Shown here: piece after piece, positions 4,485 to 7,817 of the stretch
Position numbering within the stretch: the stretch's first letter is position 1
Layout: every line of letters starts with the position of its first letter
Assembly (NCBI RefSeq): GCF_013315695.1
Contig: NZ_CP054353.1
DNA: 64,000 bases
Direction: 5' to 3' (one strand)
Source: Escherichia coli
GTDB taxonomy: Bacteria; Pseudomonadota; Gammaproteobacteria; Enterobacterales; Enterobacteriaceae
The notes under the pieces: model-generated
Told to the model about the DNA's origin: nothing
The model's database searches: none
Seen by the model: the letters and a program-made list of their open reading frames with translations, nothing else
Translations under genes and position numbers: made by a program

Positions 4485-4601
4485 GGTGCCCTCAATATTA
4501 ACAAGACATACTGAATTAAAAGATTTGTGGCAGTGTATTGAACAATCTGGCAATGTTTTCGCGGAATAATCACGCAATTAACTAAACAAGGTTTAGTGAA
4601 G

Positions 4602-5795
4602 ATGAGAGCCTGCATTAATAATCAACAGATTCGCCACCATAACAAATGCGTGATTCTGGAACTGCTGTACCGGCAAAAGCGCGCCAATAAATCAACGCTG
4701 GCCCGGCTGGCGCAAATTTCGATTCCGGCGGTCAGTAATATTTTGCAGGAACTGGAAAGCGAAAAACGGGTGGTGAATATCGACGATGAAAGTCAGACGC
4801 GCGGACATAGTAGCGGTACATGGCTGATTGCGCCGGAAGGTGACTGGACGCTGTGTCTGAACGTGACGCCCACCAGCATTGAGTGTCAGGTCGCTAATGC
4901 CTGTTTAAGTCCGAAAGGCGAATTTGAGTATTTACAGATTGATGCACCGACGCCGCAGGCGCTGCTGTCCGAAATCGAAAAATGCTGGCATCGCCACCGT
5001 AAATTGTGGCCGGACCGTACCATCAACCTGGCGCTGGCAATCCACGGTCAGGTTGATCCGGTGACTGGCGTGTCGCAAACCATGCCGCAAGCGCCGTGGA
5101 CAACGCCGGTTGAGGTAAAGTATCTGCTGGAAGAGAAGCTCGGCATTCGGGTGATGGTCGATAATGACTGCGTGATGCTGGCGCTGGCGGAGAAATGGCA
5201 AAATAATTCGCAGGAACGGGATTTCTGCGTGATCAACGTTGATTACGGTATTGGCTCGTCGTTCGTGATTAACGAGCAAATTTATCGCGGCAGTTTGTAT
5301 GGTAGCGGACAGATTGGTCACACCATCGTTAATCCGGATGGTGTCGTCTGCGACTGCGGACGTTACGGCTGCCTGGAAACCGTCGCCTCGTTAAGCGCAT
5401 TAAAAAAACAGGCGCGGGTATGGCTAAAATCACAACCGGTTAATACTCAGCTTGATCCTGAAAAACTGACAACAGCGCAGTTAATCGCTGCCTGGCAGAG
5501 TGGAGAACCGTGGATCACCAGTTGGGTTGATCGCTCTGCCAACGCCATTGGTTTGAGTCTGTATAACTTCCTCAACATCCTCAATATTAATCAGATTTGG
5601 TTGTACGGTCGCAGTTGTGCCTTTGGTGAGAACTGGCTTAATACCATTATTCGCCAGACGGGATTTAACCCGTTCGACCGCGACGAAGGACCGAGCGTGA
5701 AAGCGACGCAAATTGGCTTTGGGCAATTAAGCCGCGCACAGCAGGTGCTGGGAATTGGCTATTTGTATGTTGAGGCGCAGTTACGGCAGATTTAA
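4602..5795 (+). CDS. yphH: ROK-family (NagC/XylR-like) transcriptional regulator
   Basis: ORF with N-terminal HTH and ROK sugar-kinase-like motifs (CDCGRYGCLE); ATG at 4602 preferred over the upstream GTG at 4596. Confidence 0.85.
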   Translation: MRACINNQQIRHHNKCVILELLYRQKRANKSTLARLAQISIPAVSNILQELESEKRVVNIDDESQTRGHSSGTWLIAPEGDWTLCLNVTPTSIECQVANACLSPKGEFEYLQIDAPTPQALLSEIEKCWHRHRKLWPDRTINLALAIHGQVDPVTGVSQTMPQAPWTTPVEVKYLLEEKLGIRVMVDNDCVMLALAEKWQNNSQERDFCVINVDYGIGSSFVINEQIYRGSLYGSGQIGHTIVNPDGVVCDCGRYGCLETVASLSALKKQARVWLKSQPVNTQLDPEKLTTAQLIAAWQSGEPWITSWVDRSANAIGLSLYNFLNILNINQIWLYGRSCAFGENWLNTIIRQTGFNPFDRDEGPSVKATQIGFGQLSRAQQVLGIGYLYVEAQLRQI

Positions 5796-5972
5796 CTGAT
5801 ATAACAATGAGATGACTATTCTACAGAACTGCGATTGGTATATCCGCTGAAACATGATGCTGCAGATGTCACAAAGCAATTATCTGAAAAAATGAAGATT
5901 ATCAATTTTATCTTTAAAAAATCTTAGATGCCCGGTTATTATAAGTGATATTTTAAATACGGAATTATTGTT

Positions 5973-6170
5973 ATGGATAACCCTGGTCCTCTTGCTGCGC
6001 TTATGTTTGGCTTTGTTATGTTGGTGTTACTAATTTTCATGTTCGCCTTTTATTTCATTGGGCGCTCAATTAAAAATAAAATAATATCTACAATATTTAT
6101 TGTTCTCTCTACCATTTCATTAATATTGATAATTACATTTGCTTTTTTTATTATTCATATATTGCAATAA
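5973..6170 (+). CDS. hypothetical small membrane protein (65 aa, two predicted TM helices)
   Basis: ORF in a very AT-rich stretch between yphH and the glyA terminator; strongly hydrophobic translation; weak Shine-Dalgarno; followed by a stem-loop plus T-run at about 6190..6218. Confidence 0.3.
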   Translation: MDNPGPLAALMFGFVMLVLLIFMFAFYFIGRSIKNKIISTIFIVLSTISLILIITFAFFIIHILQ

Positions 6171-6235
6171 ACTTCACCTTTTTAGTCAAAAGGCTTCCCG
6201 AAGGAAGCCTTTTTTCAACAGATTAACCGTTTCGC

Positions 6236-7489
6236 TTATGCGTAAACCGGATAACGTGCGCAGATGTCGAGAACTTTACCTTTGATGCGCTCGATAACAG
6301 CTTCATCATTGATGCTGTCCAGCACGTCACACATCCAGCCAGCCAGTTCTTTCGCTTCGGCTTCTTTAAAGCCACGACGGGTAATCGCCGGAGTACCTAC
6401 ACGAATACCGGAAGTCACAAATGGGCTCTTCGGATCGTTCGGTACGCTGTTTTTGTTGACAGTGATGTTAGCACGGCCCAGAGCGGCGTCTGCTTCTTTA
6501 CCGGTCAGGTTTTTATCAACCAGATCAACCAGGAACAGGTGGTTATCAGTACCGCCGGAAACCACTTTGTAGCCGCGTTCGAGGAACACTTCTACCATCG
6601 CTTTGGCGTTTTTCGCGACCTGCTGCTGGTAAGTTTTGAACTCAGGTTCCATCGCTTCTTTCAGAGCAACCGCTTTACCGGCGATTACGTGCATCAACGG
6701 ACCGCCCTGACCACCAGGGAAAACGGCAGAGTTCAGTTTTTTGTACAGCTCTTCGCTACCACCTTTCGCCAGGATCAGGCCGCCGCGCGGACCCGCCAGG
6801 GTTTTGTGAGTGGTGGTAGTAACAACGTGAGCATGAGGAACCGGGTTCGGGTAGACGCCAGCAGCAACCAGGCCCGCAACGTGCGCCATATCAACGAACA
6901 GGTAAGCACCGATGCTGTCAGCGATTTCACGCATTTTCGCCCAGTCCACCACGCCGGAATATGCAGAGAAGCCACCGATAATCATTTTCGGTTTGTGTTC
7001 TTTGGCTTGTTTTTCCAGATCGGCGTAGTCGATATGACCGGTAGCATCGATACCGTAAGGAACGATGTTGTACAGTTTACCGGAGAAGTTAACCGGAGAA
7101 CCGTGAGTCAGGTGACCGCCATGCGCCAGATTCATACCCAGAACGGTATCGCCTGGTTCCAGCAACGCAGTGTACACCGCAAAGTTAGCCTGGGAGCCGG
7201 AGTGCGGCTGGACGTTAGCGTAGTCAGCGCCGAACAGTTCTTTCGCACGATCGATCGCCAGTTGTTCAACGATATCAACATACTCGCAACCGCCGTAGTA
7301 GCGTTTGCCCGGATAACCTTCAGCATATTTGTTGGTCAGCTGAGAACCCTGAGCCTGCATTACGCGCGGGCTGGTGTAGTTTTCGGAGGCGATCAGTTCG
7401 ATGTGCTCTTCCTGACGTACTTTTTCCTGCTCCATAGCCTGCCACAGTTCGGCATCATAATCGGCAATGTTCATTTCACGCTTTAACAT
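6236..7489 (-). CDS. glyA: serine hydroxymethyltransferase
   Basis: 417 aa from [22 protein letters not shown]; PLP-binding motifs; unmistakable GlyA sequence. Confidence 0.97.
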
Positions 7490-7817
7490 CCGCATCTCCT
7501 GACTCAGCTAACAATAAAATTTTTGGCCTTTATAGGCGGTCCTGTTGGACAACGGCGAACAGTATAACCGAATCATTGTGCGATAACAGGTCTTGACAAA
7601 GGAATTTACGCAAACGATTACCTTCAGGCTACGCAAGGCTTTGGAGAATAAAGAGCTTGCAACCGGAAACGGATTTCTTTTCAGGTTTGTGATGCAAATT
7701 TTTCACTTCATCACATTCTTTCTGAAAAACACCAAAGAACCATTTACATTGCAGGGCTATTTTTTATAAGATGCATTTTAGATACATCAATTAAGATGCA
7801 AAAAAAAGGAAGACCAT

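Follow-up and report, generated by a model that had tools for sequence, protein, structure and literature searches.

A 65-codon open reading frame (ORF) in the AT-rich DNA between yphH and glyA of Escherichia coli is very probably a genuine coding gene, and comparison with its relatives makes it probable that this is a real member of a family of hairpin membrane proteins sharing the motif NPGPLAAL, carried on an acquired islet. The ORF lies on the plus strand of the 64,000-nucleotide stretch of E. coli DNA analysed here (contig NZ_CP054353.1, hereafter the window), whose gene content includes yphG, yphH, glyA and hmpA. It starts with ATG at 5973, ends at 6170 and encodes MDNPGPLAALMFGFVMLVLLIFMFAFYFIGRSIKNKIISTIFIVLSTISLILIITFAFFIIHILQ, a hydrophobic protein with two predicted transmembrane (TM) helices, as an earlier note on this DNA had reported; we refer to this protein as type A. 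The same note had proposed an unannotated small membrane protein, and this proposal is borne out by codon-level conservation with two 65-aa relatives at a place where RefSeq carries no gene. Judged from its sequence, type A is best regarded as a new and divergent addition to an uncharacterised family of small, 65-aa membrane proteins, carried on a newly described islet. The features of the locus are collected in Table 1.

Table 1. Features of the yphH–glyA locus in the window.
Feature	Coordinates	Strand	Basis and remarks
yphH (ROK family)	4596..5795	+	left flank of the islet
AT-rich islet, 395 bp, 29% GC	5794..6188	.	alignment with 63-bp and K-12-type alleles; BLAST; composition
Sigma-70-like promoter candidate, TTTAAA-18 nt-TATTAT	5913..5942	+	consensus scan, 9/12 matches; inferred
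Shine-Dalgarno core GGA	5961..5963	+	9 nt before ATG; read from sequence
IS1 target site, 9-bp duplication TTGTTATGG	5968..5976	.	AF14 junctions; same junction in OZ546911
Putative 65-aa two-TM helical-hairpin membrane protein gene (type A)	5973..6170	+	ORF, relatives, dN/dS, AlphaFold2
Bidirectional intrinsic terminator of yphH and glyA	6188..6213	.	11-bp stem, GAAG loop, T-run 6210-6215
glyA	6236..7495	-	right flank; gene and its terminator untouched

The interval between the end of yphH (5795) and the stop codon of glyA (6236-6238, minus strand) spans 440 bp (5796-6235) and has a GC content of ~29% versus 51% for the window, in agreement with the AT-rich gap described in the earlier note. 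In 200-bp windows, GC was 0.27-0.33 within the interval and 0.49-0.58 in both flanking genes; the block 5794-6188 has 29.1% GC, compared with 51.3% for yphH, 52.6% for glyA and 51.2% for the full window. When the flanks and the interval were used as a BLAST query against 5,426 complete E. coli genomes, yphH and glyA were present everywhere and the islet was found in five (~0.1%). AF3, a blood isolate that is 100% identical to the window over 6.4 kb around the interval, and MSB1_4I carry it intact, AF14 and OZ546911 carry it interrupted by IS1, and in MS 21-1 IS1 is accompanied by a deletion. Some 3,485 further genomes (~64%) match only 6185/6189-6235 of the interval, comprising the terminator and the glyA end; theirs is the 63-bp spacer, the commonest in E. 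coli. Most of the remaining E. coli genomes have a 197-bp K-12-type spacer. Alignment of the alleles showed that the islet stands in place of 18 bp, GATGGCGCAATAACGTAG, of the common 63-bp yphH–glyA spacer, in which the order is stop codon, 18 bp and then hairpin. In the islet allele the yphH stop codon TGA is changed to TAA, and the YphH protein is unaltered. The claim that the interval is absent from K-12 and longer than there also held when aligned, since the K-12-type spacer has a different content: its extra sequence consists of palindromes resembling, and which we take to be, REP (REP/BIME intergenic repeats). The window allele shares none of that sequence, and no REP palindromes were found in its spacer.

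The islet carriers differ from one another by only 0-1 SNP in 440 bp, which indicates a recent gain in one clone. The islet is a rare, clonal, lineage-restricted and recently acquired insert, so that the small horizontally acquired insert suggested earlier is confirmed by a block that is present in 5 of 5,426 complete genomes and missing from K-12. The ends of the islet carry neither direct nor inverted repeats, no DNA relatives of it were found elsewhere in E. coli (complete genomes, BLAST), and a distant-mode DNA search against plasmids and phages returned chance matches of 34-73 bp only. The stem-loop and T-run pointed out earlier downstream of the ORF proved to be a perfect 11-bp stem (6188-6198/6203-6213) followed by TTTTTT, with a folding energy of -16 kcal/mol and z = -4.2 versus shuffles; a simple terminator scan did not list it. 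This hairpin is present in the 63-bp allele; it predates the islet and is not part of the insert. It presumably now also ends the islet transcript, and the yphH transcript would now have to cross the islet before reaching its terminator.

The ORF by itself is only weakly improbable and is not strong evidence for a gene. In a dinucleotide-preserving shuffle test, an ORF of at least 65 aa occurred in 6.2% (ATG start) to 10.9% (any start) of the shuffles. Because the strand is T-rich and T occupies 61% of second codon positions in the ORF, the hydrophobicity of the product (Phe, Leu, Ile; GRAVY of +1.72) follows largely automatically. The ORF was judged to be a gene because of the comparison with relatives, not because of its length. 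RefSeq/PGAP annotation calls no gene at the type A ORF; the exact type A protein is present on 889 contigs, and GenBank submitters label it hypothetical. A word-indexed search of 5.8 billion proteins returned near-identical E. coli sequences only, and the single-contig variants of type A include missense changes and one nonsense change.

A HMMER scan of 1.84 billion representative proteins identified one distant cluster, represented by a frameshifted 40-aa fragment, which led to WP_001531630.1 (UniProt A0A1U9U2G3 / A0A5R8TDT1; MSNPGPLAALVYGFILIVLLSVSLILYSIGRTIKNEIGKGIAYALTGILLILSLLVGAFILTLLT), here called type B. Types A and B are both 65 aa long and align in BLASTP with 48% identity, 65% positives and 0 gaps (pairwise E 9e-18). 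They share the motifs M-x-NPGPLAAL, GF, IGR(S/T)IKN and LIL, the predicted hairpin, the GGA and low GC; they differ in that helix 2 is largely different in sequence, the locus is another one, and type B is annotated by PGAP, as a hypothetical protein, whereas type A is not. The type B gene is located in a ychF-adjacent, integrase-bearing island of roughly 20 kb in E. coli, and IS91 and IS21 pseudogene fragments directly follow it. It was found in 511 of the 5,426 complete E. coli genomes (~9%), including ST131 strains such as JJ1886, and is thus ~100 times commoner than type A with its 5 genomes. The name 'Tic20 family' given to type B in IMG had no Pfam support and was rejected.

A profile search recovered only these two types and a third 65-aa subtype, B' (P0057), whose protein is 46% identical to type A and 74% identical to type B. 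The type B' gene, seen on ~4 contigs, is located upstream of rcnB, of the yeh fimbrial operon and of apbC, and only 174 bp of contig precede it. The RcnB and YehD proteins encoded next to it fall into clusters, at 90% identity or more, with proteins of Salmonella enterica, and the DNA reaches only ~76% identity to E. coli. The three copies occupy three unrelated loci in two genera, and no conserved partner gene was found beside any of them. The three-way alignment showed M-[DS]-NPGPLAAL-x-[FY]-GF in helix 1 and Y-x-IGR-[ST]-[IV]-KN at the turn as shared motifs, and M1, N3-L10, G13, F14, L19, L20, Y27, I29-R31, K34, N35, L45, L50-L52, I60 and L64 as invariant. An upstream 30-aa ORF (5835-5927) had no family match, is not kept in types B or B', and was discarded. 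In a 15-billion-protein collection including metagenomes, HMMER again detected types A, B and B' and nothing else. No relatives were confirmed by peptide-pattern scans, which were run twice over 100,044 species-representative genomes and also over IMG/VR; the representative genomes evidently lack this accessory gene. In tblastn searches of phages and plasmids with types A and B, nothing was found except one 542-kb E. coli record listed as a plasmid (type B), and looking up the motif, accessions and locus in the literature was without result.

The comparison of the three genes shows that the protein is the conserved unit. NPGPLAAL is kept between types A and B despite five synonymous third-position changes. 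Nei-Gojobori estimates for the A-B pair were dN 0.53 and dS 1.50, a ratio of 0.35, with 0.2 in residues 1-36 and 0.65 in residues 37-65; the B-B' ratio was 0.5, and these constraint statistics come from a tiny family of three sequences. Helix 2, with dN/dS of 0.65-0.9, represents a half of the protein constrained only in composition. When the same 87 A-B substitutions were placed at random, 17.5±2.6 identical amino acids were expected versus 31/65 observed; 0 of 20,000 simulations reached the observed identity (P < 5e-5), and 5.6% stayed stop-free. The corresponding B-B' permutation gave 42.9±2.3 expected versus 48 observed (P = 0.022). Alternative frames are full of stops in both the type A and the type B gene. 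The DNA of B and B' is 83% identical within the ORF and not alignable outside it, and upstream of the ORF all three have in common only a patchy ~40 nt (TATTAT/TATTAA block, ATATTT, GGA). Conservation confined to the ORF, together with the constraint tests, thus points to the protein. Purifying selection acts on the gene, most strongly in helix 1 and at the turn. The check for conservation and synonymous-substitution bias proposed in the earlier note was run, yielding two gapless 65-residue relatives and a dN/dS of ~0.35, and the possibility raised there that the ORF is non-coding has become unlikely given this codon-level conservation.

AlphaFold2, run on the three-sequence alignment, predicted a helical hairpin with helices at 4-32 and 36-64 (mean pLDDT 90). 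Charged residues are absent from both helices and there is no extramembrane tail. Based on the positive-inside rule, the topology would be N-out/C-out, with the basic loop G30-R-S-I-K-N-K36 in the cytoplasm and both termini in the periplasm; the corresponding turn in type B is GRTIKNEIGKG. A9-x-x-x-G13 is a conserved small-residue motif of a kind typical of helix packing. In an AFDB50 fold search, type B was the only match with E below 1, and the other matches were dismissed as generic helical hairpins (encapsulated ferritins, flavivirus E stems, sorting nexins). No hit with an E value under about 0.05 came from Pfam, NCBIfam, PHROGs, PADLOC or PDB sequences, and Rfam on the islet DNA gave no match at gathering score. 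The gene would function in the manner of other small, hydrophobic proteins of the inner membrane that the accessory genome encodes. Among the families tested, the protein belongs only to its own unnamed family, and it shares with the WP_001531630.1-like NPGPLAAL hairpin proteins full-length gapless similarity, the motifs and the signature of purifying selection.

The candidate promoter lies ~30 nt upstream of the ORF, and such matches are not above shuffle expectation in AT-rich DNA; the TATTAT/TATTAA and ATATTTT block is partly common to the upstream regions of types A and B. The consensus scan gave no minus-strand promoter match. The Shine-Dalgarno sequence had been called weak, a fair description of a modest GGA 9 nt from the ATG. 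Types B and B' keep this GGA (GGATGATTATG and GGATGGTTATG), there at a shorter distance ahead of the start codon.

IS1 has entered this gene repeatedly. In three of the five complete type A genomes, IS1 is at or in the 5' end of the ORF: the IS1A element of AF14 and OZ546911 lies between the Shine-Dalgarno sequence and the ORF, parting the ORF from promoter and Shine-Dalgarno sequence, and in MS 21-1 an IS1-associated deletion of 5615-5979 takes away the 3' end of yphH, the region ahead of the ORF and its start codon. Many of the 'partial' proteins in the databases arise where the reading frame runs on into an IS1 end (SEHKTLSISWSHYLV-M..., ...VMLPTY*, ...VMTPTY*, ...GDAANLLI* and ...GNGANLLI*). 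Read-through at contig ends places a further insertion in type A at about codon 55, and type B has about eight, at codons of roughly 30, 33, 40 (three junction kinds), 46, 47 and 53. Of 511 complete genomes with the type B segment, 12 have it interrupted, compared with 1/507 and 0/507 for two neighbouring 371-bp island segments (Fisher P = 2e-5, counting events that are not phylogenetically independent). IS1 favours AT-rich targets, and the type B gene segment, with 36% GC versus 43% and 58% in the comparison segments, is the most AT-rich of them. These data show that the gene is dispensable and the site an IS1 hot spot; toxicity does not follow from them.

Several other readings of the islet were weighed against this evidence. 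Hok, Ldr, TisB, Ibs, ShoB and GhoT are small, very hydrophobic inner-membrane peptides encoded by short stand-alone loci, and GhoT/OrtT is a type V toxin of 57 aa with two TM helices. Type A resembles them in size and hydrophobicity, and GhoT also in its two helices, but it is longer than typical type I toxins and has no GhoS-like gene. It could accordingly be asked whether the ORF encodes a stand-alone selfish or addiction membrane toxin (type I/V-like), whose hairpin would oligomerise and depolarise the inner membrane, which H-NS or low translation would keep silent, and whose cost would be removed by selected IS1 insertions. A very hydrophobic peptide on AT-rich acquired DNA that matches no known family would suit such a toxin, as would IS1 at the ORF 5' end in 3/5 complete type A genomes, the read-throughs within codons 30 to 53 of type B, and the 12/511 interruptions of type B versus 1/1,014 for the neighbouring segments. 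The excess of IS1 insertions is weakened by the AT preference of IS1, the 36% GC of the gene segment and the non-independence of the interrupted genomes, and most carriers have an intact gene (exact type A on 889 contigs; type B in 499/511 genomes). Searches for type I toxin families (Hok, Ldr, TisB, Ibs, ShoB, Fst and others) in Pfam, NCBIfam and PADLOC gave no match with E below 0.1; there was no GhoT/OrtT Pfam match and no second gene in the islet that could correspond to GhoS. No antitoxin gene, conserved antisense or overlapping sRNA, or structured 5' UTR was found (Rfam, no match at gathering score), the flanks of the family members being unalignable even between B and B', and the protein has two fully apolar helices rather than one helix with a polar tail. 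We regard the toxin as unlikely, although it is the strongest of these competitors. Class II holins likewise have ~65-70 aa and two TM helices, but they carry a charged C-terminal tail and occur with an endolysin in a phage context, whereas type A is flanked by yphH and glyA and lacks such a tail because the protein ends inside helix 2 (...FFIIHILQ); PHROGs gave no significant match (best E 0.37), and phage and viral collections held no relative.

Two-TM bacteriocin and microcin immunity proteins (MchI, Cvi-type) are of similar size, form a hairpin and are encoded by AT-rich accessory-genome genes. An orphan immunity-type protein against a competitor's bacteriocin or microcin or a phage product, with the cognate toxin gene absent, would agree with the size, two-TM architecture, low GC and island or islet location of our genes, with the integrase-bearing island of type B, and with specific motifs conserved at the periplasmic N-terminus and the cytoplasmic loop, which suggest a defined partner. 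Yet neither sequence nor profile comparison with Pfam and NCBIfam detected similarity to an immunity family, no bacteriocin, export, processing or maturation gene lies beside any of the three copies, and plasmids and phages hold no relative save the 542-kb record with type B, so that an immunity protein seems rather improbable. We consider it quite improbable that the DNA is AT-rich junk without coding function, or what a decayed insertion has left behind, with the ORF a by-product of the T-rich strand: an ORF this long arises in 6-11% of shuffles, T fills 61% of second codon positions, the Shine-Dalgarno sequence is weak, RefSeq annotates nothing and one single-contig variant has a nonsense change among other missense variants, but three diverged copies keep start, stop and 65 codons without gaps, their protein identity is far higher than random substitution would leave, and conservation is limited to the ORF. 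A Phe-rich leader peptide with an attenuator regulating a downstream gene can be practically dismissed. The idea came from Rfam, where Phe_leader matched weakly at 6149-6217 (25.5 bits, E 0.07), far below the gathering threshold of 55; the hairpin is already present in genomes without the ORF, and gene order rejects this reading, as no plus-strand gene follows because glyA converges.

In the explanation that we prefer, a real gene of the NPGPLAAL hairpin family on an acquired islet, the islet lies exactly in the gap between the stop codon of yphH and the terminator that yphH and glyA share, and carries one self-contained small gene with a candidate promoter, the GGA and a 65-codon ORF, its termination being provided by the pre-existing hairpin. 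Transcription could come from the weak AT-rich promoter at 5913-5942 or from yphH read-through. H-NS silences low-GC DNA, and at 29% GC the islet is probably H-NS-silenced under laboratory conditions. The product would insert in the inner membrane as an almost wholly buried hairpin, only the GR(S/T)IKN loop facing the cytoplasm, and may act via intramembrane helix-helix contacts, with which A9-x-x-x-G13 would fit. As its likeliest role we tentatively propose that it assists or protects another membrane protein while being itself dispensable (a modulator or immunity-like partner), a suggestion that falls somewhat short of an even chance. This role is ranked first because specific motifs rather than bulk hydrophobicity are conserved, and because no antitoxin and no conserved antisense RNA or UTR was found. 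It ranks above the stand-alone membrane toxin, which appears less likely; the remainder would be other roles or no function. It seems doubtful that the gene is a new kind of selfish membrane toxin, of the size of a single gene and lacking an antitoxin, or a new immunity determinant, H-NS-silenced and, being costly, recurrently knocked out by IS1, and that, as a bare ~250-400-bp unit, it is spreading into terminator-proximal intergenic sites in Escherichia and Salmonella.

Nothing mechanistically surprising has so far emerged about the islet gene, and its practical value is modest: it is one more candidate for small-protein screens and a handy marker of one E. coli lineage. Our data suggest that a genuine small membrane-protein gene at yphH–glyA has been left unannotated by the NCBI RefSeq pipeline, and link it to a hypothetical protein that ~9% of complete E. 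coli genomes encode, among them genomes of the pandemic ST131 clone. The recurrent IS1 insertions hint at a product that may carry a cost, or that the cell can at least readily do without. Types A, B and B' would define a small family with clear motifs that is covered by no profile library, and the islet would be an example of a single small gene fitted exactly between a stop codon and a shared terminator, with its neighbours undisturbed.

Insertion of IS1 was recurrent in both E. coli members of the family, the 65-aa two-TM protein encoded in the AT-rich islet between yphH and glyA (type A) and its 65-aa relative in a ychF-adjacent island (type B). At least four IS1 junctions lie within or at the type A gene, and about eight fall in codons 30-53 of the type B gene. 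Of the 511 complete genomes with type B, 12 had the gene interrupted, compared with 0-1 of 507 for adjacent segments. In the JJ1886 island, a pseudogene fragment of an IS91-family transposase begins in overlap with the type B stop codon, and beyond this fragment lie an IstB fragment of IS21 and then ISEc24. The small gene might have been carried by IS91-type one-ended transposition, although the flanks of type A are free of IS91-like sequence. Just upstream of type B, the same island encodes a pair of membrane proteins, DUF2339 and DUF3999, the latter being frameshifted in JJ1886 and intact in other island carriers. For the third 65-aa relative, found beside rcnB (type B′), all contigs carrying the Salmonella-like copy stop 174 bp upstream of the gene, suggesting that a repeat or IS element is also present upstream of type B′.

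Coordinates of the features described (L numbers, retrieved comparison sequences)
Feature	Location	Strand	Details
IS1 target regions	window 5968-5980; L019 720-740, 1495-1510; L004 2234-3000		
IS1-targeted type B gene	L009 8001-8198		
IS-fragment region at type B stop	L016 14335-14792 = JJ1886 1371265-1371722		
DUF2339-DUF3999 pair	L016 9610-13659		
Type B′ upstream segment	L018 1-174; L017		
Minimal spacer	L003 597-659		63 bp; one bidirectional terminator; ~64% of genomes
K-12-type spacer	L002 597-793		197 bp; REP-like palindromes
Substitution regions	L005 3965-4100; L006 4030-4260 (together equivalent to window 5937-6228)		
Sigma-70-like match	window 6126-6154	+	TTGATA, 17 nt, TATTAT; 10/12

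The yphH-glyA spacer is polymorphic among E. coli genomes, and two forms, minimal and K-12-type, were described outside the window. In the K-12-type spacer, the downstream T-run of the terminator and the sequence beyond it are replaced by the palindromes. Two draft assemblies from one project, GCA_902849715 and GCA_902849735, each showed six substitutions relative to the window, all confined to the 440-bp AT-rich interval, and no substitutions were detected in the 4-8 kb of their flanks compared. The two assemblies do not share the same set, and a nonsense codon occurs in one of them; the changes seem most likely to be errors of low-coverage assembly in AT-rich DNA.

The top sigma-70-like match of the region is internal to the type A ORF, at its 3′ end, and is probably a chance product of AT-rich DNA. 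Transcription from it would stop after about 50 nt, at the terminator shared by yphH and glyA.
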